Position numbers and translations under genes: made by a program
Virus record (IMG/VR): IMGVR_UViG_3300046007_003718
Location: 32,001-96,000 of that record
DNA: 64,000 nucleotides
Strand: one strand, 5' to 3'
Source of the DNA: a virus
The notes under the pieces: model-generated
What the model was told of the DNA's origin: nothing
Database searches by the model: none
What the model saw: only the letters and a program-made list of their open reading frames with translations
In this document: piece after piece, positions 11,186 through 28,286 of the stretch
How the letters are laid out: each line of letters opens with the position of its first letter
Numbering within the stretch: the stretch's first letter is position 1

Positions 11186-11191
11186 TCCGGG

Positions 11192-12960: not shown

Positions 12961-12986
12961 GGCTACGGGCCTCAGATTTGACGCCC

Positions 12987-13170: not shown

Positions 13171-13536
13171 CTAGACCGCTGCCTGCTCGGCCCGCTGCTC
13201 ACGGGCGAGGTCGTACAGAGCATTGGCGGCTGCGGTCTTGGTTGTGTAGAGGCCGACCTTCTCGCCACCACGGTCGTAGGCGTGCCACTTGCCGTTCGCC
13301 CGATAGACCTCGCCCAGATACATCTCGCTGCGCCAGCGGTAGTAGCCAACCGCGTGCGGATTCCGCATCTTAACGACCTCGCGGCCCTCGGTCACGATGC
13401 CGTCCTCCCATGCGTAGATGCCCTGCGATGCGTAGATGGTGCTGACCAGAGGCTCATGGGCGCTAACCTCACGATGCCCCCATCGGATGTTCTCGTTGGG
13501 GACATACTCCTCGTTCTGGATGGTCTGGATTCTCAT
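13171..13536 (-). CDS. Hypothetical early protein
   Basis: AGGAGA RBS; terminator hairpin at 13117-13142. Confidence 0.65.
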   Translation of the reverse strand: MRIQTIQNEEYVPNENIRWGHREVSAHEPLVSTIYASQGIYAWEDGIVTEGREVVKMRNPHAVGYYRWRSEMYLGEVYRANGKWHAYDRGGEKVGLYTTKTAAANALYDLAREQRAEQAAV

Positions 13537-13594
13537 GGGATTCTCCTGTTCGTTGGCTGCTGAGGCAGTCTAGCACGTTTGTACCGCGTGCGCC

Positions 13595-13885
13595 CTAGCC
13601 CTCCTGCGCCTCCATGTAGTCAAAGATTGCGTGAACGCCCTCCTTGGTGAACCAGATCACGGGGTCGCCGGGGTCGTAGTGGTCGTCCTCGTCCACGAAC
13701 ATCAGGCCCTTGGCGACCAGAGACCCGATCACCCCATCGGCCTCATGCTTGTTTCCGATGATGCGCTGGGCACCAGAGAGGTCAAGGTTGGAGTAGTTGT
13801 CGCTCAGTTGCCCCTCCCGGTCGTCGTAGTTGAGGGCGGCGGTCAAAAGGATTGCCTCGCGCTCGGTGATGTTGCTCATGGTCAT
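13595..13885 (-). CDS. Hypothetical early protein, possible winged helix
   Basis: GGGAG RBS; ITEREAILL...GVIGSLVAKGLM pattern. Confidence 0.6.
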   Translation of the reverse strand: MTMSNITEREAILLTAALNYDDREGQLSDNYSNLDLSGAQRIIGNKHEADGVIGSLVAKGLMFVDEDDHYDPGDPVIWFTKEGVHAIFDYMEAQEG

Positions 13886-13957
13886 GCTCCCTGTTCGTTG
13901 GCTGCCAGAGCAGCGTATCACAGATTCCAGACGTAGGCCCGATTCGCTGTGAAGCCC

Positions 13958-14060
13958 TGAGAGGCGTTCTACGGGCCTCGGATGCCTTCCCCCATGCTAG
14001 ACCCTTCCCAGACCATGCGAGGCCCTTCTAGGCCCCTTAGAATCGCTCCTAGGCCCTACC
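13958..14060. repeat. Fourth copy of the ~105-bp dispersed element
   Basis: tgagaggcgttctacgggcctcggatgccttcccccatgctagacc. Confidence 0.75.
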
Positions 14061-14140
14061 GGGGGTCACGACCCCATCCCCGGATGCAGAAAGGGGGCCT
14101 TGCGGCCCCCTCCCCGTTTACACGCCCTGTACCTCCCGGC

Positions 14141-14323
14141 CTAGTAGTCGTCCAGCACCTCGTCCAGAAGGTCGCGCAGGCGCTCCACCTCATCCCCGGT
14201 CATGGCGACCGACACCTGCGGGCCGTCCAGCGTGGGGAAGGCGTGGAGGGTGATGTTGGCATCCCCGTCGCCCTTGTCAGTCACGAACACCACGGGGCCG
14301 TGGTAGGTCTCAATGCTGCTCAT
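14141..14323 (-). CDS. Small hypothetical protein
   Basis: AGGAG RBS; TAAACGATG stop/start junction. Confidence 0.6.
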   Translation of the reverse strand: MSSIETYHGPVVFVTDKGDGDANITLHAFPTLDGPQVSVAMTGDEVERLRDLLDEVLDDY

Positions 14324-14326
14324 CGT

Positions 14327-14530
14327 TTACACGCTCCTGTTCTCGTTGTTGAGGTGATGCTTGCCGCCACACTTGGGGCAAGCCCGGACGAACGTGAGTC
14401 GCCCGGTGCTGTTCTCCCTGAGCCAGAGGGTGCCCTCCTTCTCGGGCTTGCCGACGTACATGCTCATCCCCCGCCCGGTGACGGTGTTGCCACCGGGGCA
14501 GGGAGCAGAGATGAATGAGGTGGCCCCCAT
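14327..14530 (-). CDS. Small Cys/His (Zn-ribbon-like) protein
   Basis: CPKCGGKHH; TAAACGATG junction. Confidence 0.55.
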   Translation of the reverse strand: MGATSFISAPCPGGNTVTGRGMSMYVGKPEKEGTLWLRENSTGRLTFVRACPKCGGKHHLNNENRSV

Positions 14531-14533
14531 CGT

Positions 14534-14836
14534 TTACACCCCCTTCTCGTCGTTGGGAAGGAACATGGCCTCGCGCTTGGCAGCCTTGGCGAACGACGAC
14601 CCGCTGATGGAGTACCTGCGGGGCCGGGACGGGGCGGCGATCAGAGCCGCGTGGAACTCGGTCGCCAGCGACTCGGCCTCGTAGGCGCTCGCCAGAGCAA
14701 CGTCGGCCTCCAACCCCTCGGGCAGAGCGTCGGCCTGCCGGTGGTACTCCTCGGCACGGGCTTCCAGCGCGTCCACGATGAACGCGGCCTCACCGATGCA
14801 GAGGTTACGGATGGAGACTCGGTACGGATTACCCAT
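14534..14836 (-). CDS. Hypothetical early protein
   Basis: Start reassigned to MGNPYRV after GAAAGGA RBS and promoter. Confidence 0.6.
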   Translation of the reverse strand: MGNPYRVSIRNLCIGEAAFIVDALEARAEEYHRQADALPEGLEADVALASAYEAESLATEFHAALIAAPSRPRRYSISGSSFAKAAKREAMFLPNDEKGV

Positions 14837-14865
14837 GATGCTGTCCTTTCGGTTGGTGTTGGGGC

Positions 14866-14904
14866 ATTGTAGCACGCCCCTCAGACGGATGCCCTCCCCG
14901 TTTA
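14866..14904 (-). promoter_or_regulatory. Early promoter, TAAACG class
   Basis: TAAACG-N4-GGGCAT-N17-TACAAT; near-duplicate of 15345-15383. Confidence 0.65.
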
Positions 14905-14954
14905 TCCGGGGAGGGGAGGCAGGGCAGGGCGGTGGCCCGCCCTGCCCCTGTCGT

Positions 14955-15308
14955 TTAGACCCCCTGCTCGGTGGTCTCCTCGTCCTGCGGCCCCTCCTCG
15001 TACTCGCGGGCGGCAGCGAGCAGCACCTCGGCAATCTCGCGGGCCTGCTGGGCGGTGAACTTGGCGTGAACGTATCCCTTCTCCTGCCCCTCGGAGGTTG
15101 CCAGCGTCCCCAGCACCATGACCGTCACCTCACCGAACTTTCCGCCAGCGATCTGGTAGTCCTGCCGGTGAGTCGTGAGGGAGTCGTTTCGCTCATGGGT
15201 GAATGAGGTGCCGTCGTTGGTGACGTAGGTGTACGGGCCGACGCCCTCGCCCTGCACCGTGTAGGTGGTGTAGTCGTCGTTCTCGTAGTTGCTGATGTTG
15301 ATGCTCAC
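14955..15308 (-). CDS. Hypothetical early protein
   Basis: GTG after GAGGAG; acidic tail. Confidence 0.6.
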   Translation of the reverse strand: MSINISNYENDDYTTYTVQGEGVGPYTYVTNDGTSFTHERNDSLTTHRQDYQIAGGKFGEVTVMVLGTLATSEGQEKGYVHAKFTAQQAREIAEVLLAAAREYEEGPQDEETTEQGV

Positions 15309-15344
15309 GATGAAACTCCTCGGTTCAGTTGCTTGCTGAGGGGA

Positions 15345-15383
15345 AGTGTACCACACCCCTCGGACGGATGCCCTGCCCGTTTA
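15345..15383 (-). promoter_or_regulatory. Early promoter, TAAACG class
   Basis: TAAACG-N4-GGGCAT-N17-TACACT. Confidence 0.65.
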
Positions 15384-15441
15384 TTCGGGGAGGGGCGAGG
15401 GAGGGGGAGGGGAGGTGGCCCCTCCCCCTCCGGGGTGGTGA

Positions 15442-16203
15442 CTAGGCCCCGTGGGGAGCCGTCACCTTGGGCTTGCGGGTCTTGCGGGCGACCACCTGCA
15501 TACGCTCGCCGCAGCAGGGGCAGATCGGCGTGCCAGCCGCTTCCAGCCACTTGGCCGTCATGTTGAGGTTGTAAACGTCCTTGCCCTCACCGCTGGGGTC
15601 GCAGCCACGGGTGCCGTCCTCCTGCGGGGTGCAGCAGGCGACCTTCACCAGACGGGTGGCCTGCGGCTTGTGGACGACGTTCATGCCCTTGTGCGGGTAC
15701 TCGCCCAGCGACTCGCGCAGGCGGGCAGTCAGGGCCACGAAACGGTCCCCGGCGTAGGTGGCGGTGGGCTTGCCAGCGAGGCCGATGGTGCGAATCATCT
15801 CCACGAACGGACCCTTGTGGCCGTTCTTGTTGCCGTCAATGGCGTGGACAATCTCATGGGCGAGAACGTCCAGCACACCCGGCTCGCGCTCGTCGTTGCC
15901 CAGCGTGTCCTTGCGGCCCGTCTTGGGGCCGATAGCGTGGGCAAGGGCGGGCGACACGGTGATGTGCCGCACGTTGCCCTCGGGCGAGGAAGTCTCATGG
16001 TAGGCCATGCCGACCACGGAACCCTTGCCGCTCTTACCCAGCCACGCCCGCTTGTGCGAAAAGGACAGGTGCGGGGCGACGGTGTAGCCCTCGGGCATCG
16101 GGAAGCCAGCCTCGGCCAGAATGGTGAGCAGGCCGTCAGTTGCGGCGGCGATGTAGGACTCAGGCGTGTCGTGGACCTGAGCGTGAATCGGTGAGTAACC
16201 CAT
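15442..16203 (-). CDS. SprT-like zinc metalloprotease with C-terminal Zn ribbon
   Basis: VLAHEIVH...GHKGPF...IGL; C-terminal CPCC; AAGGAG RBS; TTGACA promoter upstream. Confidence 0.75.
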   Translation of the reverse strand: MGYSPIHAQVHDTPESYIAAATDGLLTILAEAGFPMPEGYTVAPHLSFSHKRAWLGKSGKGSVVGMAYHETSSPEGNVRHITVSPALAHAIGPKTGRKDTLGNDEREPGVLDVLAHEIVHAIDGNKNGHKGPFVEMIRTIGLAGKPTATYAGDRFVALTARLRESLGEYPHKGMNVVHKPQATRLVKVACCTPQEDGTRGCDPSGEGKDVYNLNMTAKWLEAAGTPICPCCGERMQVVARKTRKPKVTAPHGA

Positions 16204-16373
16204 GATGCTGTCTCCTTGGTTGGTTGCTGTACGGGGATTAAACCAGATGGTGTGAGCCGTGTCAAGTGCCCGGTGTGGGCGGCTCGTTTATCCCTGCCCC
16301 GGCAGTATGACAGATGCTCCGGGGGAATACAAGCCCTCCCCGAATCCTCGCTCGGGGAGGGCGTTTAGATGCC

Positions 16374-16613
16374 CTAGAGGTCGGCCTCGTACTCATCGGC
16401 CAGCCGGTCCAGCGTGTAGGCCTGATACTCGGCCTCCCGGTGGGTCTCCATCCACTCACGCTCGCGCTTGGGGTCGTAAGCGAACCCATCCTCATCCCCG
16501 AATCCTGCGGCGATATGCAAGGCATCAGCGGCCTTCTCACGCAGAGCCTCGGCTCCTGCCCTCAGAACCTCCACCCTCTCCTGCTGAATCATCCGGCTTG
16601 TTGCAACACCCAT
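16374..16613 (-). CDS. Hypothetical early protein
   Basis: Start MGVATS after GGGAG; promoter at 16641-16681. Confidence 0.6.
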   Translation of the reverse strand: MGVATSRMIQQERVEVLRAGAEALREKAADALHIAAGFGDEDGFAYDPKREREWMETHREAEYQAYTLDRLADEYEADL

Positions 16614-16678
16614 CGTTGTCTCCCTGTTCGTTGTTGGGGGACCGTAGCACAGATTGGGGAGAGGGCACAAGGCCCCGT

Positions 16679-16864
16679 TTATCCTTCCACCCACGACCAC
16701 ACCTCGGGGTCGGTAGGATGCTGCTCGGGGAGGGTGGCAAGGCGCGGCCATGCAGTCATGCCTTCCTGCTCCATGATGGTGAAGGCCGCGTTTACACGGG
16801 CGGTGATGTTGGTGAACTGCCCCTCACGGAGCCACTCCATGTACCGCTGCTCATCGCTCAACAT
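16679..16864 (-). CDS. Small hypothetical protein
   Basis: MLSDEQRYMEW; operon context. Confidence 0.5.
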   Translation of the reverse strand: MLSDEQRYMEWLREGQFTNITARVNAAFTIMEQEGMTAWPRLATLPEQHPTDPEVWSWVEG

Positions 16865-17023
16865 GACCAAGCCCCCTAGTAAGAATCCACGCATCCAGAG
16901 CATCCTGAACAAACGATGTGATGCGCTCCTGCACCGTATCAAAGTCCACGGTGCCCTCCTGCTTGTCCCACTCAGCGGCGTCCAGCGAAACCTGAACGGA
17001 GATTGGCAGAGAGATGTTGCCGC

Positions 17024-17191
17024 TTACCATGACACTTCCTCCTTGTGCTTACGCTTGCGCGTGTAACGGATGTTTACACGCTCGGGCGCATCCTTGCGCG
17101 AGCGCCTGACCTCAATGCGAACCCGCTGGCGCATACGACGCGCACGCTTAGGCTCAACGAACTTCTCCTCGTCCCGCTCTTGCTCGTACAT
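17024..17191 (-). CDS. 55-aa basic protein with YTRKRKHK motif (ArfA-like tail)
   Basis: Hand translation MYEQERDEEKFVEPKRARRMRQRVRIEVRRSRKDAPERVNIRYTRKRKHKEEVSW; TAGGAGA RBS. Confidence 0.6.
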   Translation of the reverse strand: MYEQERDEEKFVEPKRARRMRQRVRIEVRRSRKDAPERVNIRYTRKRKHKEEVSW

Positions 17192-17254
17192 GGTATCTCC
17201 TAATAGTTATCTATCTAACTAATGAATATCTATCTAACTGCTTGCTGCTCAGAC

Positions 17255-17293
17255 AGCATACCATCTCAGATGAGAGATGCAAGGCCTCGTTTA
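17255..17293 (-). promoter_or_regulatory. Early promoter, TAAACG class
   Basis: TAAACG-N5-TTGCAT-N16-TATGCT. Confidence 0.7.
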
Positions 17294-17620
17294 TTCGCCC
17301 TCAATCTCCATACCAATCGTGAATCCTAGGCTAGCACCAGACTTGGTGTTGTAAACGCCGTCAGGCACCCATCCGCTAACATCGTAGAACGACTCCAACA
17401 CAGTCCCCTTCACGGATTCTAGCGAACGGTGAAGGGTAAACCACACTTCACTCTCATGCACCTTGCGCTCAACTAGAAGCCACGGACGCTCCTGCTGCCC
17501 AGCAACCTCCAACCGAACATTGTCTGGGTCAATGTGGAAATCCTGATCGTAGTCCTCTAGGATTTCCACAATCACCTTATTGGTGATCTGAACATCGTCA
17601 GGGATGCAACTAACACTCAT
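17291..17620 (-). CDS. Hypothetical protein
   Basis: GGAGG RBS; TAAACGATG junction. Confidence 0.6.
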   Translation of the reverse strand: MSVSCIPDDVQITNKVIVEILEDYDQDFHIDPDNVRLEVAGQQERPWLLVERKVHESEVWFTLHRSLESVKGTVLESFYDVSGWVPDGVYNTKSGASLGFTIGMEIEGE

Positions 17621-17623
17621 CGT

Positions 17624-17899
17624 TTAATCCTCCTGTATGATTTCGGCAATATAACCTGCATAGCAGTTAAACTTCTCCTCATCGTTGGCTGATGAAGGAA
17701 CCTCAACATAACCATCGTGAACCCAAACATCATGCCCATCTATGCAACCGGGCTGACCGTCAAAGAGCATACGGCAGACCTGATGTGAAGTGCTGCCGTC
17801 GTCGTAGAACTGCCACCAATCATCAGAGCCAAAGCGGAGGCGATGAAGGGTCACAGTCTCCTGCTCGTACTTCTGGGGAGGCATGATTAAACGCCCCAC
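17624..17899 (-). CDS. Hypothetical protein
   Basis: Operon context; start may be MPPQKY. Confidence 0.55.
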   Translation of the reverse strand: MGRLIMPPQKYEQETVTLHRLRFGSDDWWQFYDDGSTSHQVCRMLFDGQPGCIDGHDVWVHDGYVEVPSSANDEEKFNCYAGYIAEIIQED

Positions 17900-18264
17900 T
17901 CAGAAAGGTTGCCATTGGCACGCTCAGGGACTCGGACACGGTACTCGGGGTAATAGACCTCACCGTTGGTGGTGTCCACGATAGCAACCACTACCCACAC
18001 ACCCTGTGCGTCAGCGTCCACCACAGAGTCGTAGATAGAGGTGTCGGCGTACTCGGCAGCCTCGTCCCACTCATCCTTGCCGTCGTAGAGAACATCGAAG
18101 TCCCCGCCCTTGACGACAGCGATGAAGCGGTACAGGTTGCCGTCAGAATCCCAGAATCCCGACTGCGGGGAGCCATGACGGGGAGTTCCCCACGCACTCT
18201 GAATCCTGTCCATCATCTCCTCAGCCTGCTCGCGCTGCTCAATCTCTGCATCGGTAATGCTCAT
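17887..18264 (-). CDS. Acidic hypothetical protein
   Basis: Start MSITDAE after AAAGGAG. Confidence 0.6.
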   Translation of the reverse strand: MSITDAEIEQREQAEEMMDRIQSAWGTPRHGSPQSGFWDSDGNLYRFIAVVKGGDFDVLYDGKDEWDEAAEYADTSIYDSVVDADAQGVWVVVAIVDTTNGEVYYPEYRVRVPERANGNLSEWGV

Positions 18265-18296
18265 CAGAATCTCCTTTAGTTTGTTGCTGCTTAGAC

Positions 18297-18335
18297 AGCA
18301 TAGCACCTCAGACCTAAGATGCAAGTGCCCGTTTA
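18297..18335 (-). promoter_or_regulatory. Early promoter, TAAACG class
   Basis: TAAACG-N5-TTGCAT-N16-TATGCT. Confidence 0.7.
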
Positions 18336-18556
18336 TTCGTCGTAGTAGTCGAAACTGTCTGAGACCGGACCTTCCTGCTGTAGCAGGGAGAACACTTCCC
18401 ACGCCTCGTCCTCGTCCTCTATGTAGAAAGAAACGTCCCGTAGTCCAAAGCCAGCACCAGAATCGAACTGATAACCCTTAGACTCTCGGATGCCCTCAAA
18501 GAAGTCCTGCAACTCGTTTAGACGCTCAATGGGATATGAAGCAGAAACAACAAACA

Positions 18557-18892
18557 TTATCCCTCCCTCCACTCAGGCCCCTCGTCCAGAATGTCCATAA
18601 CCTGAACATCTCCGGGCTGGCAATCAATAAGGTCATGCCAAGCCCAACGGTCGGGGCAATCATCTGAGGCATCGGTTGTGATGCGAAGGGTGATGGTGTA
18701 AACGCGCATCTCTCTCACGTTCAGAACGTAAGCAGGAAACCTCTCACCACAGTCGTAGCACTTGTAGCCACAGACCAGAACCTCACGGTCATGCTCATCA
18801 ATCTCAACATCATGCCCAGACTGCGAGGTGACGTTCTCAGACTGACAGTTTACACAACACTCGGGATTATCAACAAAGTTTACGGCACTCAT
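18557..18892 (-). CDS. Zn-ribbon protein
   Basis: CVNC...CYDC pairs. Confidence 0.55.
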   Translation of the reverse strand: MSAVNFVDNPECCVNCQSENVTSQSGHDVEIDEHDREVLVCGYKCYDCGERFPAYVLNVREMRVYTITLRITTDASDDCPDRWAWHDLIDCQPGDVQVMDILDEGPEWREG

Positions 18893-18895
18893 CGT

Positions 18896-19075
18896 TTAAC
18901 CATCCTGTCGGGGAGTGATGTACCCAGCCTCAATCAGAGCCGCAGCCATGCGACCGTAAGAGCCTTGCAGGCTCCATGCCATACCTGTATCCACAAGGTA
19001 CTGAAAGAGGTCAATGATACCCTCCTCATCCAACTCACCCTGCTCATACTCCATAATCGAACTAACGTAATCCAT
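18896..19075 (-). CDS. 59-aa small phage protein
   Basis: Hand translation [53 protein letters not shown]...; AAGGAG RBS; below ORF-track cutoff. Confidence 0.65.
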
Positions 19076-19193
19076 TTCTATCTCCTTACCTAGTCAGAGA
19101 AAACGTAAGACCGGCCACTACCCACACGGCCAGAACGCCAACTGCGATTACAATAAAAGTTTCCATCTTGCCCTCCTCGTTGCTTGCCTTGTA

Positions 19194-19233
19194 AGCATAG
19201 GGAATATATCTCACTAATGCAACTATTCGTTTA
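19194..19233 (-). promoter_or_regulatory. Early promoter, TAAACG class
   Basis: TAAACG-N5-TTGCAT-N17-TATGCT. Confidence 0.75.
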
Positions 19234-19455
19234 TTCAGCCTACCACTCAAAGCGAGCGGAAAGAACCTTGTGGTCTGGGAACAAACACCTAACCTGCTCC
19301 ATCGCTCGGTCCACCATCTCTGTGATGATTTCACTATCCTCAAGGTTTCCCCAAACATAGTCTAGCGTGTCCTCGTTCTGCTCGGTCAGGCTTGCCTCAT
19401 AGGTAAAGTTATCGGCAATACCATTCTCACTAACCATCTCAACGGTAACAAACAT

Positions 19456-19812
19456 TTAGATGCGCTCCTCGCTCATTGTGTCCTGTCGGATGTTCTCCAT
19501 CTCCTGTTCGTTGAGCCATGCGTAAGCCTCGGCACGACTCTCCTCGTCAGCCGCAGCCTGTCGCAGAATCTCGTTCCACTCCTCGGGGTCGGTGACATAG
19601 GACTCAGCATCAATCTCGTCCCGACGACGCCGATACTCCTCCTCAATCTGAGCCTCAATGATGCCCTGTCGGTACTCAACCCAGAGAGTCAGAGCCTCAT
19701 CAAGAATGACGAACTGCTCAATGGTGAGGTCTCCGTTTACAGTCAGGTCGTCCAGACGGTGATAGAGAGCCGTAGCCTTGTCCTGCATAATCATAACATC
19801 GTCCTGCATCAT
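19456..19812 (-). CDS. Acidic hypothetical protein
   Basis: AAAGGAG RBS; promoter directly upstream. Confidence 0.6.
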   Translation of the reverse strand: MMQDDVMIMQDKATALYHRLDDLTVNGDLTIEQFVILDEALTLWVEYRQGIIEAQIEEEYRRRRDEIDAESYVTDPEEWNEILRQAAADEESRAEAYAWLNEQEMENIRQDTMSEERI

Positions 19813-19842
19813 TGGTCTATCTCCTTTCGTGCTTGCTCGTCA

Positions 19843-19882
19843 AGCATACAGGTTAATAGGAAAAAGTGCAACCCCTCGTTTA
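19843..19882 (-). promoter_or_regulatory. Early promoter, TAAACG class
   Basis: TAAACG-N5-TTGCAC-N17-TATGCT. Confidence 0.75.
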
Positions 19883-20251
19883 TTCAGCGTAGAAGGGGTC
19901 GGGGCACCAATGCGAAGCAATCTCCATCTCTCGCTTCCACGAACGCTCCTCCTCCACACACTCGGAGAATCGCTCAATAATGATAGAACCGATGCCCTCC
20001 AACTCCTTGCGGTCTGTATCAATCTGGTTCATCGTGCAGTACGAAGCATCCTCAGCATAATCCCAATCACCATCAGGCTCCTTGGTCAGCACAGAGAAGC
20101 GAAGCAGAGGCTCGTCGGTAGGGTCGGTAGGGTCGAAGTCCCCATACCATCCCTCGCCAATGTAGTCCCACTCAACCTTCACAGTCTGGTCGTCGTTCGT
20201 AACCTCTAGTGGAATAAACGACTCAATCTCAGTTGTCCAATCCTTACTCAT
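19880..20251 (-). CDS. Acidic hypothetical protein
   Basis: GGAGG RBS; IGEGWYGDFDP...PLLRF...DASYCT. Confidence 0.65.
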   Translation of the reverse strand: MSKDWTTEIESFIPLEVTNDDQTVKVEWDYIGEGWYGDFDPTDPTDEPLLRFSVLTKEPDGDWDYAEDASYCTMNQIDTDRKELEGIGSIIIERFSECVEEERSWKREMEIASHWCPDPFYAE

Positions 20252-20593
20252 CTTTCCTCCTAGCGTCCGTAGTAGTCTGGGTGATTCATACGATACTTAG
20301 CCTCCTGCTTCATGGCTGCGATACACTCATTATCGCAGCGAGCAGGCAAACCAAGCGTTACCACGTTATACAGCATAACACTTCCAATCACAGAAAGCGA
20401 AGCGTAAAGAATAACCTTCCACATCATCGGTTTCTCCATTCAGTATAAACGCCCACAACTTCATTGTAGATATCGAACGGCTCATCTAGAGTGTGGCCTG
20501 CATCGTCCCGATAGCCACAGTCGTCGTTAGAACCAACATCGCATGAAAGATAGCACGCAAGACCTTGGAAATAGTAGTCAGGCTCTAGCATGT

Positions 20594-20803
20594 TTATTCT
20601 CCATCCTCGGGGTAGCCAGCCTGTGAGCGCAGGCTATCAATGAGTGACTGAATAAACTCAACATTCTGCTCGTCAGCATCCTCGTAAGATGAGGAGTCAC
20701 GAATCTCCTCAACATTCTGCCAGAGAGACCAAAGAATGTAGTCCAAGTCCTCAATCGGCAGAGTCACGTTTACATCTCGGTTCCAAAAGTCGTTGGTAGT
20801 CAT
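20594..20803 (-). CDS. Small acidic hypothetical protein
   Basis: GGAGG RBS; TAATG coupling. Confidence 0.6.
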   Translation of the reverse strand: MTTNDFWNRDVNVTLPIEDLDYILWSLWQNVEEIRDSSSYEDADEQNVEFIQSLIDSLRSQAGYPEDGE

Positions 20804-21007
20804 TACATAACCTCCGGTGTAGGAATGTGCAGTCGAAGTCCACCAGCCTCGTAATCGTTCAGAGCATAGTGGATAGCATCAGGCAGGGTAGCAATCATAG
20901 TCTCTACCTCCCCACCGTCGCCGGGACCACCATGATACCAGATATCCCAGCACCTATCATCCATCGCGGGATAAATGTCGTACACGAAGCCCTCGCCGTA
21001 GATACGA

Positions 21008-21331
21008 TCAATAGTCCTCATCGTCGTCCTCGTCCATCTCAAAGTCGAACTCCACGATGAGGCGAGCGACACGACCATCGTTGTCGTACTCAACGAACAC
21101 CGGATAAACGCCGTCACCCCAGCCGGTGCTGGTGCAGACCGCATCAGAAAAACGACCCTGAGTAGAGAACTGCCCCGCCCGCTCGTCGCTCAGGCTAGCC
21201 GCACAAGCGCGACCATATGGGGAATCCTCACCGTACTCGCCGTCAAGGACGTAGCAGGGGTCCACAACGAACACCTGACCAGAATCAACGGGAACCTGTC
21301 CCACCTTCACGCGCATACCAGACCTACTCAT
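21008..21331 (-). CDS. DUF4241-like protein
   Basis: VDSGQVFVVDPCY...TGWGDGVYPV motifs; GGAGG RBS. Confidence 0.65.
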   Translation of the reverse strand: MSRSGMRVKVGQVPVDSGQVFVVDPCYVLDGEYGEDSPYGRACAASLSDERAGQFSTQGRFSDAVCTSTGWGDGVYPVFVEYDNDGRVARLIVEFDFEMDEDDDEDY

Positions 21332-21359
21332 TACTGCCTCCTTTGTTGCTTGCTCGTCA

Positions 21360-21400
21360 AGTGTAGCAGATCAAGTCTGCCGATTGCAACTACTCGTTTA
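21360..21400 (-). promoter_or_regulatory. Early promoter, TAAACG class
   Basis: TAAACG-N5-TTGCAA-N18-TACACT. Confidence 0.75.
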
Positions 21401-21591
21401 GATGCGGGTACGCTTGCTGCGCTGATTGACCCTCATCAGAATCTCGTAAACCTCAGCCTCATTCACCGCCTCATGCAGAGAATCAAACTCAGCATCCGTG
21501 AACTCGCTCTCATCAATCACGATAAGATCATCCTCGTCGCATCCACCCCAACTGCCGTCAGCGGCGCTCATCCAGATCACACGACCCATGA

Positions 21592-21849
21592 CTAGGCCTC
21601 CCGAATGATCGTAGAGATATACTCAGCGAGCATACCACGCTCATCAGAGTCGTCAGGAAGGGGAATAACGATGCTGCCCACATTGGTCTTAGTGCCGTGG
21701 GCAGTCGTGGACTCAATCAGGATGTTTATACGACCACCCGGCTTGGCAAAGATGCCGACCTCGTAAGTGCGAGCGTAATCCTTTCCTGCATCACGCTCCA
21801 CCTTGTAGATATAGGCCACACCGTTTACATCGTTATTGGTACCAATCAT
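21592..21849 (-). CDS. Hypothetical protein
   Basis: Operon context. Confidence 0.55.
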   Translation of the reverse strand: MIGTNNDVNGVAYIYKVERDAGKDYARTYEVGIFAKPGGRINILIESTTAHGTKTNVGSIVIPLPDDSDERGMLAEYISTIIREA

Positions 21850-21850
21850 A

Positions 21851-22279
21851 TTATGCCTTCCTTTCGTAAGAATCGTACTTTTCGTTTAGAATCGGTCGAA
21901 ACTTCTGCTCAACAAGCGCCTGAGCAGTTTCATACACTTCCTGAGCAAATGCGTTTGTCCACGCCCCGGTCATATCAAAAGAGTCAGGGAGATAAGTGTC
22001 GAACAACTCATCCACCAACTCGCAGGGAGAGGGCCAATAAACGCTGTCCACGTTCTTATCCCAATACTCCCATGCGATGTTAGCGAATACCTTGCCCACA
22101 TACTCTGCATTGTTATTGGAATAAATGACCACACCATAGATGCTCCCATCGAAGGGGTCCACATACGGAGTAAAGGTGATGCCTGCATCGTACTCCACGG
22201 TCTCCTGAAAAGTCTCGCGGAAGTCTTGCAGCACAGCCTTGCTAACAGAACCATAGGACTCACACATTAGGCATCCCAC
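21851..22279 (-). CDS. Hypothetical protein
   Basis: Operon context; start may be MCESYG. Confidence 0.55.
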   Translation of the reverse strand: MGCLMCESYGSVSKAVLQDFRETFQETVEYDAGITFTPYVDPFDGSIYGVVIYSNNNAEYVGKVFANIAWEYWDKNVDSVYWPSPCELVDELFDTYLPDSFDMTGAWTNAFAQEVYETAQALVEQKFRPILNEKYDSYERKA

Positions 22280-22422
22280 CCACTCACGCGGGCCTGCTGC
22301 TTGGCCTTACGGCGCTGGGTCTTGCGACTCTGGATGCCATGCGTCTGAGAGTGCATGATAGCGAACCGCTGGCCGGTCGTGCTGGTGTCCTGCCGGAACT
22401 TCTTTCGCTGCTTGTTGGTCAC
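22267..22422 (-). CDS. Small basic protein
   Basis: AAAGGAG RBS; KQRKKFR...SRKTQRRKAKQQAR. Confidence 0.55.
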   Translation of the reverse strand: MTNKQRKKFRQDTSTTGQRFAIMHSQTHGIQSRKTQRRKAKQQARVSGWDA

Positions 22423-22450
22423 GATCATCTCCTTTGCTTGATGCTCTAGC

Positions 22451-22490
22451 ATCATACAGTATGGAATCCAAAAGTGCAACTGCTCGTTTA
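22451..22490 (-). promoter_or_regulatory. Early promoter, TAAACG class
   Basis: TAAACG-N5-TTGCAC-N17-TATGAT. Confidence 0.75.
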
Positions 22491-22706
22491 TTTGCCTTCC
22501 TCTAGGGCAATCAGAGCATTGACAATCTTGCGGGCCTTCTCCTCTGCTTGCTTCATGTAAACGCTACGGTCGCCCTTCACATCCTTACGGACAACGATGA
22601 TACAGACCTCTCCACCCTCCTCATCCATGACCTCAATATGGTCTGCATGAGGAAGGGCAAAGTCGGGTTCCTCGTTCCAATACCAAGCATACATCATCTA
22701 AATCAC

Positions 22707-23174
22707 CTATCCGTAGATGAGCCGACCGAACACAGCAATCTGAACCAGAACATCGGCGCAGTCTGCGTCAAGATAGCCGGGGTCGTTCTCACGAAGGGCA
22801 CGCTGAATGTAGCCGGTGATGCTGGTGTTAGCAGGAGGCTCCTCCTGAACAAAGGTCTGGAAAGCCTTAGTCAGATTCTCAGCATTGACCGTATAAATAG
22901 GGGATTCGGTCTCAGCCACATCCTCATTCTCGCGGAGAGTAACCTCGTACCACAGTTCATCAAGAATGTCTCCACTCTCAGGCTTAGTTACCTTAATGTT
23001 TAGAGCGTCAGCCCAATAGAAGGAAGCGCCATAGGAACCATCAAAAGCCCCGACAAGCACAGCGTCCACCATATGCGCGGTAATAGGAAGGGTCGTCGTG
23101 ACCACACCAACCACCGTGGACTTGTCGTACTTCTCCTCTAGAGCCTTAAGACTCTCCGATACATAGTCACTCAT
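22707..23174 (-). CDS. Phage hypothetical protein
   Basis: C-terminal DADCADVLVQIAVFGRLIYG; start after GAAAGGAG. Confidence 0.65.
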   Translation of the reverse strand: MSDYVSESLKALEEKYDKSTVVGVVTTTLPITAHMVDAVLVGAFDGSYGASFYWADALNIKVTKPESGDILDELWYEVTLRENEDVAETESPIYTVNAENLTKAFQTFVQEEPPANTSITGYIQRALRENDPGYLDADCADVLVQIAVFGRLIYG

Positions 23175-23203
23175 ATTGCTCCTTTCGTTTTCCATCTGAA
23201 TAG

Positions 23204-23243
23204 ATGGTATCAGATCAACCAACCAACTGCAACTACTCGTTTA
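23204..23243 (-). promoter_or_regulatory. Early promoter, TAAACG class
   Basis: TAAACG-N5-TTGCAG-N17-TACCAT. Confidence 0.7.
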
Positions 23244-23477
23244 TACTCCACGCCAACCAGAACAGGTGCCGCATGTGCAACAGCAACTTGTGGGGGATGC
23301 AAGCCAAAGGTAAGCGATAGCCCTCTCAGCATAACGTCCTTTACTATCGGCACAATAAATACGCTGCCAAATAGAGATTGTATCATCGCAGAAGTAACGC
23401 CTATGGGGGTTATCCCATGCCCTCTTATAGATAGGCTTATTAAACCACTCATTATTAGAGCATCCACATCCACACAT
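23241..23477 (-). CDS. Cys-rich small protein
   Basis: AAAGGAGG RBS; CGCGC and CCCTCGTC ends. Confidence 0.5.
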   Translation of the reverse strand: MCGCGCSNNEWFNKPIYKRAWDNPHRRYFCDDTISIWQRIYCADSKGRYAERAIAYLWLASPTSCCCTCGTCSGWRGV

Positions 23478-23502
23478 AAAAGCCTCCTTTAATGATTTAT
23501 AC

Positions 23503-23596
23503 TACCCCTAGCGGGAGTCGAACCCGCGATAAACTTCCGCGTAAGCCAAGCGTCCTTGTGCGTTACCGGCGTCGTTGCCGCTAGACCATTAGGGGC
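23503..23596 (-). ncRNA. tRNA-like RNA with a long non-canonical anticodon arm
   Basis: Acceptor stem GCCCCUA/UAGGGGU, D-arm GUC-UAGCGGCAAC-GAC, T-arm GCGGG-UUCGACU-CCCGC; central arm ends in CAAG-GACG-CUUG; no encoded CCA. Confidence 0.75.
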
Positions 23597-23602
23597 ATGA
23601 GT

Positions 23603-23630
23603 ATTATAGACGGTTCCACAATCAAGTCAA
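23603..23630 (-). promoter_or_regulatory. Consensus-like promoter for the tRNA-like RNA
   Basis: TTGACT-N16-TATAAT ending 6 nt before the acceptor stem. Confidence 0.7.
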
Positions 23631-23639
23631 AGGTAGGCT

Positions 23640-23846
23640 TGACGTAACAATGCCCGCTCCCTGCTCACCCGTCACCGACAACCGATTCCTTTAGTTTACT
23701 TATTATTAGTATAAATGGCTCTCGCGCCTAACGTCCCATATTGGTTGTTAGGATTTCCCGACCTACCAATCGGTTTCTTACGGAGATTCCTCCACCCCAC
23801 TAGGTCAAGAGTGGTAGCCCTCGCCTAGTAGGTCGTGAGAACCGCT
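23640..23846 (-). ncRNA. Putative structured RNA downstream of the hammerhead
   Basis: Non-coding; helices CGACCUAC/GUAGGUCG, ACUAGG/CCUAGU, GGAG/CUCC, CCUAAC/GUUAGG, AACCGAUU/AAUCGGUU. Confidence 0.5.
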
Positions 23847-23889
23847 GACGCCTCTCGGCGTTTCGTCCTATCAGGACTCGTCAGAGCGG
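23842..23889 (-). ncRNA. Hammerhead ribozyme (type I)
   Basis: CCGCU-CUGACGA-GUCCU-GAU-AGGAC-GAAA-CGCC-GAGA-GGCG-UC-AGCGG: complete core, three stems, GUC cleavage triplet. Confidence 0.92.
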
Positions 23890-24041
23890 CTAGTTGCCAT
23901 TACCTTCTTATGAACCTGCATAACCCAACCATCCTCAAAGTCGTGAGCATCACACGCCTCGCCAAGACTTTCGTAGGGGCCATAAGCCATGTACCCCGTA
24001 GAGAGATTACCGACAAGAAATACAAAAGTGTAGTCACCCAT
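23871..24041 (-). CDS. Small hypothetical protein whose 3' end overlaps the hammerhead
   Basis: MGDYTFVF after AAAGGAG; TTGCAT-N17-TATGCT promoter at ~24072-24100. Confidence 0.6.
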   Translation of the reverse strand: MGDYTFVFLVGNLSTGYMAYGPYESLGEACDAHDFEDGWVMQVHKKVMATSRSDES

Positions 24042-24403
24042 GAATCTATCTCCTTTCTCGCTTGCCCAACAAGCATACAGCACTCAATCTAGAAATGCAA
24101 GCCTTAGTCGGACTCTGAATAAACGTAACTGACCTCTCCCGAAAGATGATCTGAATGGCGATCATCAAAGAAACGATTGTCGTAAGTACCCCAGACTTCC
24201 TCTCCGGGGACATTAGACGCTGCTGCTTTAGACGCATCAAGGATAGAGTTAGCCAAACTCATAGCCTCGTCTGGATAGAGAGATAGGATAAACCCGAAAG
24301 TGCTATCTCCCGAATCAATCACAACTTGGTCCTCCACAACTGAAACATAGAACTTACTCATACTCACTCCAAAGTCTGCTTGCCACACACCTGTAGATTA
24401 GCA

Positions 24404-24436
24404 GCCCCCTATCCCCGTGTCAAGGGATAGGGGGCA
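24404..24436 (-). terminator. Hairpin overlapping a TTGACA promoter
   Basis: gccccctatccc/gggatagggggc; TTGACA in the loop, TAATCT 17 nt downstream. Confidence 0.6.
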
Positions 24437-24442
24437 ACCGAT

Positions 24443-24931
24443 CTAAATGGCCGCGCCGAAGAACTCGGGCTGCTCCTCTGGGGTGTCCACGGCCTGCTGC
24501 TCAAAGGCGGGAGTCGGAGTAGAGAACTGCATGAGCGAGTAGTCGCCGCTCAGGACAAGAGCGACCTTAGTGAGAATGCTCCTCAGAGCCTTATTCTCCT
24601 CCTCCACAGCCTCTAGACGCTGAATAAACTGAATGGAAACGGCCTCGTCGTCCATGCGCTCGTTGAGCATACCCTCAACGACATACTCCACACGGGAGTC
24701 GAAGTCGTCAATGTCGTCGGAATCGAAGGTGCGATAGCGAAGGGCCTCCTCAACTCCGTCAGAGAAGTCAAGGTTGTTGTCAATGTAGTCCTGCACGCGA
24801 CCATCAATGTCAGACTCATCCACGACAGTCTCAGCGATATCGCGGATAAACGACTCGCTGTTATAGACAGCCTCGGTGGCCTTCTCGTCCACCAGAGTCT
24901 CAATGTCTGCGGGCCAATCCTCAAAACTCAT
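24443..24931 (-). CDS. Highly acidic protein with coiled coil
   Basis: Asp/Glu-rich; own promoter (TTGACT...TATGCT ~24964-24991). Confidence 0.65.
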   Translation of the reverse strand: MSFEDWPADIETLVDEKATEAVYNSESFIRDIAETVVDESDIDGRVQDYIDNNLDFSDGVEEALRYRTFDSDDIDDFDSRVEYVVEGMLNERMDDEAVSIQFIQRLEAVEEENKALRSILTKVALVLSGDYSLMQFSTPTPAFEQQAVDTPEEQPEFFGAAI

Positions 24932-24994
24932 TACAGTCTCCTCTCGTTGATTGCTTCCCTAGAAGCATACAGTATGGATTCTAAAAGTCAAGGG

Positions 24995-25414
24995 CTAGTG
25001 CCAACCCTCGTCCTGCTCATCTAAACACTCAGTCAGAGCCGCGATAGCACTCTCCAAAGCGGGAGGGGTATAATCCAGACCAGCAATCGTGCCATTGATT
25101 AGCGCACGAATCTCGTCCTCGTACAGATAAACAGGCATCTGCCCCTCATCAAGCACGTTTTCCCAATCGCTAGAGATAACGCTAAGAGATGCAACTCCGC
25201 TCAGAGGCACGACGCACTCGTAAACAGGAGCAGCATCGCGGATAAACGACCGTCTTGCCATGAAAGGCTTACCCACAGAAAGATGCTTCTGAAAATCAAT
25301 AAGACGACGCTGCTTTGCAGGCTCGGGATTCTCCCTAGCCCACTCAGTAGTGTTCTCCCAATCAGTATAAAGGGTGCGCCCATCAACAGTACGAATCTGG
25401 ATGTAAGAACTCAC
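24995..25414 (-). CDS. Hypothetical protein
   Basis: GGTGGAG RBS. Confidence 0.6.
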   Translation of the reverse strand: MSSYIQIRTVDGRTLYTDWENTTEWARENPEPAKQRRLIDFQKHLSVGKPFMARRSFIRDAAPVYECVVPLSGVASLSVISSDWENVLDEGQMPVYLYEDEIRALINGTIAGLDYTPPALESAIAALTECLDEQDEGWH

Positions 25415-25622
25415 TACTCCACCTCAATATCGTTAGAAAACTTCATAACGTCCCAGCCATAATAACCCTCAATCAGAGAAGCGGCCTCCTCAATCGCAAC
25501 CTCCCGGTCAAAATCAGGAGGAGCAATCACCGAAGTTGTGAGGGTGAAATAATCTCCAATAAAAGTCACATTCATCATCTATCCATCTCCTTTCATCGCT
25601 ACGGGAGTAGCGTAGCATAGAA

Positions 25623-26156
25623 TCACTTAACAGGCAAGGTCCGAAGGTGACGGACCCTATCTCTTGCCCAACGCCTACGAGGCTCGGTAAACGGGTAGTT
25701 GTTCTCAATGCAACCATCCAGCATCTCCAAAACCCTGCTCTCGTCAGACCCCGTTTGTACCGCGAAGTCGTGAATCATCCCGCGAGCGATCTTAAGGTCG
25801 TGAAGGTTCTTTTCCCTGAGAAGTTTACGGTCGTCAGTAGCCTTGTTCTTACGAGCCTGCCGAATAAGACGCTTGGCCTCATCCTTTACCTCACCAACAA
25901 GGTGCTTGTTTGCACCAAGGAAGGTCTCAATGCAGTTGGAACCGGCGATGAGGTCGCCCCCATTGTCCACATCAGAAAGGTGGAACTCATACCGGATTCC
26001 ACCGTGACCACACACCTCGCAGGTAGTGTAGTTACCGGGACCGCGATCAACAGCCCCGACAAGACGAAGCCGGTGAGCATCCCTCTGCTCCTCGGGAACA
26101 CGAATGTCCTCAAAGAACTTCTGGATACCACCGGCCTGTCGCTTGCTGAACTCCAT
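25623..26156 (-). CDS. Zn-finger protein
   Basis: CEVCGH..IRYEFH...GSNCI; own promoter TTGATT-N17-TATGCT. Confidence 0.65.
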   Translation of the reverse strand: MEFSKRQAGGIQKFFEDIRVPEEQRDAHRLRLVGAVDRGPGNYTTCEVCGHGGIRYEFHLSDVDNGGDLIAGSNCIETFLGANKHLVGEVKDEAKRLIRQARKNKATDDRKLLREKNLHDLKIARGMIHDFAVQTGSDESRVLEMLDGCIENNYPFTEPRRRWARDRVRHLRTLPVK

Positions 26157-26218
26157 TAGAATCCCCTCTCGCTTGCTTACGAAGGAAGCATAGCATACCC
26201 ATTAGGGGGAATCAAGCC

Positions 26219-26578
26219 CTAGTAGTGACCATCATCATAATCACAGGGGAAATCAGGCTCGCGGGGTTCATCATCGTACCATCCACTTGCAGCCTCATAC
26301 TCAGACTCAGCGATATCACAACAAGCCTCAAAACTCAACTCAGCAACGATGTATCGTTTAGATGCCTCTGGCTCATCCTTAACGATACTGTCGTACAAAC
26401 TCTGAATCTCCTCCTGAGTACCAATCTCGTCTGGAACCTTGTCGTAGTTGATGATATCTCCCGTTTCGGGGTCTGTATCATACAGCCCGTACAAACCGCG
26501 CTCATAGACGAGTTCTGCCTGCTTCTGAAAAGAATACTCAGGCGGGTCGTAATAAGAATCTGGCATATGAAACGACAC
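26219..26578 (-). CDS. Acidic hypothetical protein
   Basis: GTG after GGAGG. Confidence 0.6.
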   Translation of the reverse strand: MSFHMPDSYYDPPEYSFQKQAELVYERGLYGLYDTDPETGDIINYDKVPDEIGTQEEIQSLYDSIVKDEPEASKRYIVAELSFEACCDIAESEYEAASGWYDDEPREPDFPCDYDDGHY

Positions 26579-26807
26579 TACAAGTCCTCCTTTGTAACAG
26601 GAATACAGTTTTCGCAATATGGAAGCCCCTCAGTCCAAGTAACTGCCTTGGTTGCTGGGTTAATCAGCACCACTTTGTCGGTCTCAACCGTATGACCACA
26701 CATACATACAGTAGTCTTTGTGTCCATCTTTCCTCCTCTCCCCCTATTGCTCTGTCGCTCAGACAGCATAGCATAGGTCGTTGGCTAAAAGCAAATGCTC
26801 GTATAAA

Positions 26808-26927
26808 TCATCGGGCGTGCCAAAAGTTTGGCTTAGGAACGCTAGCCTTGCGAGGCTTGCTGACCTTCATCTTAGCAACACGAACCTTACGCGGCTTGCT
26901 AACACCTGTACGACGAACCTTACGCAT
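26808..26927 (-). CDS. 39-aa highly basic repeat peptide
   Basis: MRKVRRTGVSKPRKVRVAKMKVSKPRKASVPKPNFWHAR; AAAGGAG RBS. Confidence 0.6.
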   Translation of the reverse strand: MRKVRRTGVSKPRKVRVAKMKVSKPRKASVPKPNFWHAR

Positions 26928-26985
26928 GTAATCTCCTTTGTTTGATCTATCTAACTTACGAAGTAACTCTATCAACTTACATATC

Positions 26986-27174
26986 TTAAGTCAAGTCATC
27001 CTCGTCATCTTCATCTATAACTATAAATGTCCTTATGAACATCAATAACATTCCTGAGATTATAGCCCATACCCCGGCGTTCCAATCTCCTGTAAGCAAA
27101 TAAAAGGTGCCGAAAAAGAAGCAGACGAGAGCAACGAATAAACCCGCTGCTCTAACCAAGTCAGTCATTAACAA
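26986..27174 (-). CDS. Two-TM membrane protein
   Basis: Hydrophobic helices, acidic tail. Confidence 0.55.
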   Translation of the reverse strand: MLMTDLVRAAGLFVALVCFFFGTFYLLTGDWNAGVWAIISGMLLMFIRTFIVIDEDDEDDLT

Positions 27175-27457
27175 TCTCTTTCCACGCTGCCCATGCCGCC
27201 TTACTTGCTCTATCTAGTCGAGACCATCGCTCTTTGTAGAATCTAACTCTAGTCTGAATAGCATTGTAGGATTCCATCTGCATCTCTACTTTGAGAATGT
27301 CTTTACTTCCGGGGAAGTCTGGTACGTTGGGTTTGCGAATGGTGCTTGCTATATCCCTCGCTATGAGGTAATCGCGGTGCGCCTCATTTGCACGACGAGA
27401 TATAGCCTTCCAAGCCCTATAGAACAAATCTGCGTTCTTTGGGCTAGGCTCGGACAT
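27161..27457 (-). CDS. Hypothetical helical protein
   Basis: Overlapping operon context. Confidence 0.55.
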   Translation of the reverse strand: MSEPSPKNADLFYRAWKAISRRANEAHRDYLIARDIASTIRKPNVPDFPGSKDILKVEMQMESYNAIQTRVRFYKERWSRLDRASKAAWAAWKEIVND

Positions 27458-28286
27458 AACGAGTACCCCTACGCTCTCCCTCAATGTTTACACGCTCATC
27501 GTTCTGTAGAACATAACGCACGCTAGTCCACTCAGTAGTCGAAAGACCGAAGTGCGAGATGAGTTCTGCCTTAGACGTTGGCCCATTGTCTGAGATAAAC
27601 TGAACAATAACATTCATCACATCAGTATCAACCGTAGGCGTCTTGTCCTCAACGATAACCTCATAAGTGCGACCGGGGACAGTATAGTTTGTCCCTCGCT
27701 TGGTGCCGTTCTTAACTACCTTGCCTGTCTCAACCGCAGCGTTGATTACCTCGGAATAGATCGAAGCCGGGATAAGGTCGCCAATATGCTTCTTAGTAAC
27801 AGGCTGGTCTGACTCCTCTACAAAGAGGATAAACTCGTCGCGTACAGCAGCAATCCTCTGAGCCTTCTCGTCGCTCTGCTTGCGCCCCGGCTTGTACCGA
27901 AGGACGCGACCATACTCATCAACGGGGGCACCGCGAGCAATAGCAGCCTGATCGGCTCGCTCCTGACACTTGGCAATCCACTTTCCCAAGTAATCCTCAC
28001 GATGGTTAATAGCCTCGTCCTCGGGCAGAGAGCGAAGCAACTCCATACGGTTATCATGCACCTCGTTTAGATCCTCAAAAGGAAGCGTAATGCGATCATT
28101 GTCTGATGTAAGAATAGTTGCTTCCTTATCCTGTGCCGCAAGCACAAGTGCATATCGAAAGCCACCCTCGCTATTCCAAAAACTAATCGTGTCACCGCGA
28201 ACGGGCGCAACCTTGGTCTGCATATCAACCTCCTTTGACTTAACATTTCTCTTAGTAAGTTTGTTACTCACTCGTTTCTTACCCAT
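27444..28286 (-). CDS. Putative DNA-binding protein with tandem winged-helix-like repeats
   Basis: Two C-terminal repeats ending GTKRGTNY and GERRGTRY. Confidence 0.55.
   Translation of the reverse strand: MGKKRVSNKLTKRNVKSKEVDMQTKVAPVRGDTISFWNSEGGFRYALVLAAQDKEATILTSDNDRITLPFEDLNEVHDNRMELLRSLPEDEAINHREDYLGKWIAKCQERADQAAIARGAPVDEYGRVLRYKPGRKQSDEKAQRIAAVRDEFILFVEESDQPVTKKHIGDLIPASIYSEVINAAVETGKVVKNGTKRGTNYTVPGRTYEVIVEDKTPTVDTDVMNVIVQFISDNGPTSKAELISHFGLSTTEWTSVRYVLQNDERVNIEGERRGTRYVRA

Follow-up and report, generated by a model that had tools for sequence, protein, structure and literature searches.

Why does a phage carry a self-cleaving ribozyme ~250 nt upstream of an element that has the shape of a transfer RNA (tRNA) and lacks an anticodon arm? 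This question is raised by a locus in a 64,000-nt stretch of viral DNA, hereafter the window, which covers positions 32,001 to 96,000 of the IMG/VR virus record IMGVR_UViG_3300046007_003718; the record as a whole is 110 kb long and ~70% complete. The cassette that we describe belongs to an uncultured aquatic phage with a DnaE-type polymerase, whose DNA occurs in at least 20 metagenome runs from lake water, and it sits in the early region of that phage among genes that all lie on the minus strand. The answer that we regard as on balance the probable one is that the cassette is a conserved self-processing non-coding RNA (ncRNA) unit, in which one cut by a hammerhead ribozyme and one by RNase P would release an RNA of ~250 nt and a tRNA mimic of ~94 nt. 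Its three central parts are as follows.

23890-23841, minus strand: type I hammerhead ribozyme (RF00163), predicted to cut between C23847 and A23846
23846-23597, minus strand: spacer of 250 nt, without a credible open reading frame (ORF)
23596-23503, minus strand: tRNA-like element (the mimic) of ~94 nt, placed by ARAGORN at 23502-23597 (96 nt)

Read along the minus strand, the full order is a promoter, a 56-aa ORF, the hammerhead, the spacer, an internal promoter within it, the tRNA-like element, a ribosome-binding site with a Cys-rich ORF, and the next early promoter. An initial annotation of this DNA had described a contiguous, single-stranded series of promoter, ORF, hammerhead, structured RNA, tRNA mimic and Cys-rich ORF; all of these elements do lie on the minus strand in that order, and both the hammerhead cut (23847|23846) and the tRNA-like 5' end (23596) fall where it had put them. 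The parts, their order, their conservation and their base pairing are observed features of the locus.

Relatives of the cassette were found by exact-pattern scans of IMG/VR and JGI metagenomes, which yielded four further distinct versions: L013, L014, L015 (the same as L009 and L016) and L008 (the same as L010, L011 and L012). All five versions come from one phage lineage. The hammerhead, the spacer and the tRNA-like element stand in identical order in every one of the five, and their co-occurrence in relatives, which had been set beforehand as a test of the initial annotation, therefore holds in all four of the other versions. Recurrence of the three-part unit in four other independent versions is more than chance would produce. 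The phages are closely related, with DnaE proteins that are 83-89% identical between the lineages. At the four-fold degenerate sites of DnaE the same lineages share only 37-40% identity, which amounts to saturation. Identity to the window is 50-56% in the immediate flanks of the cassette, 80-93% in the hammerhead, 78-100% in two spacer segments described below as blocks A and B, and 85-99% in the tRNA-like element. Given that the cassette is conserved while the silent sites of DnaE are saturated, it is under strong selection at the nucleotide level. A blastn comparison with GenBank phages gave no match, and looser DNA patterns (block A, the D arm or block B alone, along with a scan of genome contigs) gave only chance matches in coding DNA.

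The hammerhead reads CUGACGA ... GAAA ... GUC|A at 23884-23846 and has the complete CUGANGA / GAAA / UC core. Against RF00163 the window sequence scores 29 bits (E ~1e-4 in a 1.4-kb search and 2e-6 in the whole genome) and the hammerheads of the relatives score 28.5 bits. The pattern used to gather hammerheads, in which nothing but the core and stems II and III was specified, also matched six unrelated phage contigs (L002-L007). There the core and stems II/III are near-identical, the stem I sequences differ and covary, and each hammerhead lies in an intergenic gap directly ahead of a ribosome-binding site. Across nine phage sequences the core is invariant and 99.3% of the alignment cells are paired. 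Stems II and III had been specified in that pattern, which makes their pairing uninformative; stem I lay outside it, and 6 of its 6 pairs covary with changes on both sides in the nine sequences. Stem III has one compensatory pair, in the L015 lineage. The three helices are confirmed, with stem I open, stems II and III capped and covariation present. We regard the hammerhead ribozyme as real, with self-cleavage predicted from its sequence.

The spacer that follows is made up of three parts.

23846-23717, minus strand: module 1, a multi-helix domain of ~130 nt that starts at the ribozyme cut and is closed by helix P1
23716-23692, minus strand: A/U-rich linker of variable length, with indels in the relatives and in RNA-library contigs
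23691-23609, minus strand: constant domain, in which block A (23691-23669) is paired with block B (23619-23609)

The spacer as a whole folds with a minimum free energy of -84 kcal/mol (z = -2.96), and none of 200 shuffled sequences folds as well. Comparison by eye of the reading frames of the different versions revealed no conserved ORF in it, and Rfam 15, searched in both gathering and E-value modes, contains no family that matches it. One candidate, a small ORF that starts in block A behind a Shine-Dalgarno-like AAGGA, was rejected, since no two lineages agree in the length of the frame or in the peptide.

Within module 1, helix P1 joins 23843-23834 to 23726-23717, and its pairing is preserved at each of three one-sided changes. 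The hairpin at 23752-23727 has three compensatory pairs (RNAalifold, 4 sequences), and several pseudoknot pairings may be possible in these four nearly identical sequences. P1 shares 3 nt with stem I of the hammerhead, so the final fold should form only after the cut. A pairing of the cut 5' end with block B was also considered and dropped, P1 and the block A:block B helix being comparatively better supported. The latter consists of CGGU/ACCG, a tandem G.A and CGG/UG(G)U, is predicted on five sequences with compensatory changes at two pairs at its inner end, and encloses a variable hairpin (23655-23635). From the constant domain to the first base of the mimic there are 12 nt in the window and 9-12 nt in the relatives.

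The initial annotation had spoken of a defined RNA of ~250 nt, and this description fits the 3' ~90 nt, which are constant in all versions; it does not fit the 5' ~130-190 nt, for in L008 module 1 is swapped for unrelated sequence. In this replacement module (L008:4023-4211, minus strand) two H-type pseudoknots are possible by eye, one formed by GGAUUAU/AUAAUCC crossing GUUGCCAC/GUGGCAAC and the other by GGGCAAC/GUUGUCC crossing CAUGGG/CCCAUG.

In the tRNA-like element the acceptor stem is 7 bp long, the D stem (3 bp) carries a GG loop, the T stem (5 bp) carries the loop UUCGACU and the variable region measures 9 nt; all four (acceptor stem, D arm, T arm and variable region) are invariant in the five versions. 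The canonical 5-bp anticodon stem with a 7-nt loop is absent. Its place is taken by a bulged hairpin of 10-13 pairs, which is capped by a GACG loop that never varies and the stem of which has three compensatory pairs and a 4-nt insertion that is matched on the other strand. As this hairpin replaces the anticodon arm, the mimic is not a decoding tRNA. Its alignment has a mean column identity of 92% with 99% of cells paired. With the tRNA covariance model (RF00005), whose gathering score is 29, the mimic reaches 13.3 bits in the window and 20-23 bits among the relatives, and the true tRNAs of the latter reach 51-74 bits. No Rfam 15 family corresponds to the mimic. ARAGORN names it tRNA-Cys(aca) or, with introns allowed, tRNA-Val(gac) with a 9-nt intron; both assignments were rejected, the anticodon stems not being kept in L014, L015 and L008. 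The mimic has a U at position -1 in four of the five versions, its discriminator base varies over the versions (A/U/U/G/U), and CCA is not encoded, as is also the case in the 11 true tRNAs of the relatives.

These 11 canonical tRNAs (Asn, Gly, Arg, Val, Leu x2, Ile, Glu, Gln, Lys and Met) form an array at G001:C1:5880-10633, G002:C1:17836-22926 and G003:C1:83275-88028, ~66 kb from the mimic. None of them resembles a possible parent of the mimic. The 110-kb record of the window was found to contain neither a second tRNA nor a second hammerhead; it lacks the canonical tRNAs probably because it is a fragment. The low score on the tRNA model, far under the cut-off, and the inconsistent ARAGORN identities would both suit a decaying tRNA gene or a functionless remnant of a tRNA-borne integration site. 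We nevertheless find such an origin extremely improbable, given an element that is 85-99% identical across lineages with saturated silent sites, that has gained a new arm with compensatory changes beneath an invariant loop, and that lies so far from the true tRNA array.

The mimic could also be the 3' end of a longer molecule. The distance between the constant domain and the mimic is kept within 3 nt, the invariant GACG loop could by eye pair with the invariant CCGUC of block B, and the pseudoknot-rich module of L008 is reminiscent of transfer-messenger RNA (tmRNA). These observations would fit a single uncut RNA of ~345 nt that reaches from the hammerhead cut to the end of the mimic and receives no RNase P cut, its 3' end acting in the manner of a plant-virus tRNA-like structure or of the tRNA domain of tmRNA, through CCA, 3' protection or the recruitment of tRNA-binding factors. 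However, RNase P has a standard substrate in an acceptor/T-arm minihelix with a U at -1, and the varying discriminator base speaks against the uncut form as well. The defining features of tmRNA (RF00023) are also absent: the third pair is C3-G70 and not the alanine-identity G3.U70, no tag reading frame is conserved in the spacer, a plain hairpin and no set of pseudoknots connects the two halves of the tRNA-like domain, the Rfam tmRNA match at the mimic covers the T arm only (18.5 bits against 47) and ARAGORN finds no tmRNA. This explanation seems to us decidedly unlikely.

The opposite possibility, that the cassette is less of a unit than it looks, is raised by a promoter inside the spacer.

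23630-23603, minus strand: sigma-70-like promoter TTGACT-16-TATAAT, matching 11 of 12 consensus positions

This promoter is placed to start transcription at or near the first base of the mimic. Its TATAAT is invariant and directly follows block B; of the five versions, the window, L013 and L008 have the -35 element and L014 and L015 lack it, and in L015 a gap of only 3 nt separates the TATAAT from the mimic. The 16-nt promoter spacer overlaps one strand of the conserved RNA helix. With a -35 element in three of the five versions, the promoter is plausible in some versions and is not a constant feature. The earlier claim that the mimic is also made from its own promoter is thus plausible for the window, L013 and L008 and unsupported for L014 and L015.

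One may therefore ask whether the locus holds two independent units, a hammerhead that trims the 3' end of the upstream ORF message and a mimic that is a separate small-RNA gene with its own promoter, the spacer being a leader or filler. The near-consensus promoter in three versions would agree with this, as would the swap of module 1 in L008 and the presence of the same hammerhead core between genes in the six unrelated phage contigs, where no tRNA-like element comes after it. On the other hand, the hammerhead is kept in all five versions although the upstream ORF differs, the promoter is incomplete in L014 and L015 and, in the latter, its TATAAT lies only 3 nt from the mimic, and blocks A and B are conserved as much as the mimic and are paired with covariation. 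We consider two independent units unlikely. The initial annotation had also named a stop of transcription ahead of the mimic as evidence against it; a scan of 23000-24600 for the intrinsic-terminator pattern was empty, hence none lies between the parts of the cassette, and this test too speaks for the annotation.

Traces of the transcript itself were sought in RNA libraries. In four RNA-labelled runs, short contigs of close relatives were found, confined to 23615-23889. These data are contigs of relatives, DNA is possibly present in the libraries and the spacer is the best-conserved stretch, so that no inference can be drawn from the uncovered flanks or the uncovered mimic. As a sign of transcription of the spacer the contigs are no more than a weak hint, and they do not bear on the position of RNA ends.

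Several of the observations count against a self-processing unit, and we weigh them together here. One RNA-library contig (23723-23889) spans the cut site, so that sample must contain either uncut molecules or contaminating DNA. At 29 bits the hammerhead falls short of the 34 bits that Rfam sets as its gathering score. The covariation statistics are thin, as they draw on no more than five versions of a single phage lineage, and most pairs of the mimic, being invariant, have no say for or against its fold. Because module 1 is unrelated in L008, the RNA of ~250 nt may not be the functional product. Finally, the near-consensus internal promoter of three versions means that the mimic could arise without processing. 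We have included these points in our judgement that a conserved self-processing ncRNA unit is, on balance, the probable reading. The interpretation offered by the initial annotation is partly supported overall, with RNase P cleavage and the excision of the RNA to be read as predictions.

In the mechanism that we propose for the self-processing unit, the early promoter would transcribe the small ORF and read through into the cassette. The hammerhead would then cut itself at 23847|23846, whereby the ORF message would retain a folded 3' end and the downstream RNA would receive a 5'-OH, its first bases being free to leave stem I and close P1. The downstream RNA would fold into a swappable domain of ~130 nt, the A/U-rich linker and the constant domain of block A:block B. 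Host RNase P would read the acceptor/T-arm minihelix and the elbow of the mimic and cut at 23597|23596, setting free the RNA of ~250 nt and the anticodon-less mimic of ~94 nt. The mimic would be trimmed at its 3' end and probably given CCA, like the CCA-less tRNAs of the phage itself, and in three of the five versions its own consensus promoter may be a second source of it. We infer that the two cuts take place in vivo and would yield these products.

That the mimic and blocks A and B hardly vary points away from decoding and towards a protein or RNA partner that reads the tRNA shape. The invariant loops and single strands of the mimic exceed what RNase P needs for recognition, so a specific partner is expected. 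A further step, which we offer as a speculation and think quite unlikely, is that the cassette is a maker of an anticodon-less tRNA decoy that needs no phage protein, the ends of the decoy being set by the hammerhead and host RNase P and the decoy occupying host factors early in infection. Such a decoy would keep the acceptor end and the elbow and exclude decoding; it would soak up or redirect readers of the tRNA shape or of the CCA end, for example defence toxins that modify the acceptor end or tRNA-processing enzymes. The swappable 5' module would then be a second, lineage-specific cargo RNA.

Similar arrangements are known from other systems. In vertebrates, the MALAT1 and MEN-beta transcripts are ended by an RNase P cut of a tRNA-like structure, which at the same time frees a small tRNA-like RNA (mascRNA). 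As in that case, a non-decoding tRNA look-alike here lies directly 3' of an ncRNA, and a single RNase P cut would define an end of both. Unlike that case, the present cassette belongs to a bacterial virus and has no sequence relation to MALAT1/mascRNA, the 5' end would come from a ribozyme, and the RNase P cleavage is predicted. Species 1 and 2, which are stable small RNAs of the phage T4 tRNA cluster, tmRNA and the YrlA-type mimics are likewise non-decoding RNAs with acceptor/T-arm features that engage host tRNA-processing enzymes. The mimic has no sequence or Rfam match to any of these. In YrlA the acceptor-like stem is closed, whereas in the mimic the acceptor stem is open and the ends emerge from it. 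A gene for Ro60/TROVE, the partner expected of a YrlA-type RNA, gave no match in G000 or G002, nor did one for RtcB; both are incomplete records.

Closer parallels are found among phage ribozymes. Perreault et al. (2011; PMC3088659) described phage hammerheads in polycistronic transcripts and proposed that they cut long phage RNAs into shorter units. The present hammerhead has in common with these type I ribozymes the catalytic core, the three-stem layout and a site inside a polycistronic phage transcript. It differs from the hammerheads between protein genes reported there in that it is fixed at the head of a conserved ncRNA with a tRNA-like element at its end, shares sequence with the final codons of an ORF and scores 5 bits under the Rfam gathering score. 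Kienbeck et al. (2024; PMC10879173) found theta ribozymes, which resemble that of hepatitis delta virus (HDV), directly 3' of real, often suppressor, phage tRNAs, where they trim trailers. These too couple a small self-cleaving ribozyme to a tRNA-shaped phage RNA with a proposed role in the processing of RNA ends; here, unlike there, the ribozyme is a hammerhead and stands ~250 nt upstream of a mimic that does not decode. An Rfam search found no match to an HDV-like ribozyme. The Drum RNA motif was considered as an element between hammerheads and tRNAs and was dropped from the comparison, as it is described as a terminator-followed motif tied to certain nearby protein-coding genes (PMC5737381).

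A phage unit of hammerhead, ncRNA and tRNA mimic was not described in the literature that we searched. We conclude that the locus is a new RNA cassette whose parts, a hammerhead and a tRNA-like processing signal, are of kinds already known. The role of hammerheads in bacteria and phages is largely open, and in this phage one of them is tied to a specific conserved ncRNA and a tRNA mimic, which gives it a concrete candidate job, namely to give a small RNA a defined 5' end. If true, the combination of a ribozyme cut with an RNase P cut would amount to the protein-free excision of stable RNAs from phage early transcripts, in parallel to vertebrate MALAT1/mascRNA. Further, the mimic hardly varies between lineages with saturated silent sites, which implies a specific partner and makes it a candidate for a new kind of phage interference with the tRNA biology of the host. 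With its ~390 nt the unit is small enough for tests in vitro and in E. coli that need no cultured host.

Upstream of the hammerhead are the two elements that would lead transcription into the cassette.

24100-24072, minus strand: early-type promoter TTGCAT-17-TATGCT, upstream of the 56-aa ORF and matching a pattern that is repeated in the early region of the phage
24041-23871, minus strand: 56-aa ORF with a ribosome-binding site, its TGA stop lying in loop II of the hammerhead

The promoter is weak with respect to the sigma-70 consensus and fell below the threshold of a generic sigma-70 scan, which accordingly did not flag it. It fits the early type of this phage, TAAACG-N5-TTGCAN-N16-17-TAYNNT, of which there are nine minus-strand copies, and it is likely to be the start of the transcript that carries the cassette. 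The nine copies are at 23243, 22490, 21400, 19882, 19233, 18335, 17293, 16681 and 12356; over all of them the layout is written TAAACG-N5-TTG(C/T)(A/G)N-N16-17-TAYNNT. Each copy is followed by a leader containing GCAAGCA and by a ribosome-binding site, and the TAA of the layout is often the stop codon of the preceding gene.

The final codons of the 56-aa ORF (RSDES and the TGA stop) double as stem I, core and loop II of the hammerhead. L013, L014 and L015 have homologous ORFs of 49 aa immediately upstream of the hammerhead, which stop at least 9 nt before it. The upstream ORF of L008 is unrelated to that of the window, yet it also ends in RSDES and a stop within the hammerhead. The two unrelated ORFs place this ending, with the stop in loop II, at 23871-23890 in the window and at L008:4229-4257 (minus strand). 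In both, the C-terminus of the protein is dictated by the ribozyme sequence.

On the other side of the cassette, the mimic is followed in the window by one more ORF.

23477-23241, minus strand: Cys-rich ORF of 78 aa with its own ribosome-binding site, an accessory insert

The ribosome-binding site and the ORF begin 26 nt past the mimic, and no relative of the ORF was found in viral contigs. In L013 and L014 the mimic is followed by no ORF and directly by the next promoter, and in L015 and L008 other, unrelated small ORFs are found there. Since the Cys-rich ORF is absent from all relatives, it lies outside the conserved unit, and its inclusion in the cassette by the initial annotation is not upheld. 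The closeness of an ORF behind the mimic in the window, L008 and L015 might suggest that the cassette acts in cis, as a leader by which the following gene is controlled or stabilised. Three downstream ORFs that are mutually unrelated, and two versions that have none at all, make this very improbable in our view.

A conserved early protein of 138-175 aa (with the motifs VVGVVTT..., AFDGSYG and VFGRLIYG) is encoded at 22707-23174 of the window and has homologues in L013, L014, L015 and L008. Its gene lies just downstream of the cassette in four versions and upstream of it in L008, and Pfam gave no match for the protein.

Two minor observations concern the wider surroundings. At 24400-24435 (minus strand) the window has a 12-bp G+C-rich hairpin without a U tract, followed by the conserved leader CUGCUAAUCUACAGGUGUGUGGCAAGCAG; L013 and L014 have a hairpin of very different sequence at the same relative place. 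The only Rfam result for the window hairpin is DUF3800-IX (17 bits against 36.8), which is weak and without meaning. Across window positions 8000-28000 (40-60 kb of the genome) the G+C content rises from ~38-43% to 50-66%, with 66% at 10-16 kb, and then falls back down. This rise over the early-gene region reflects either a very sharp compositional mosaic within one phage contig or an assembly chimera.

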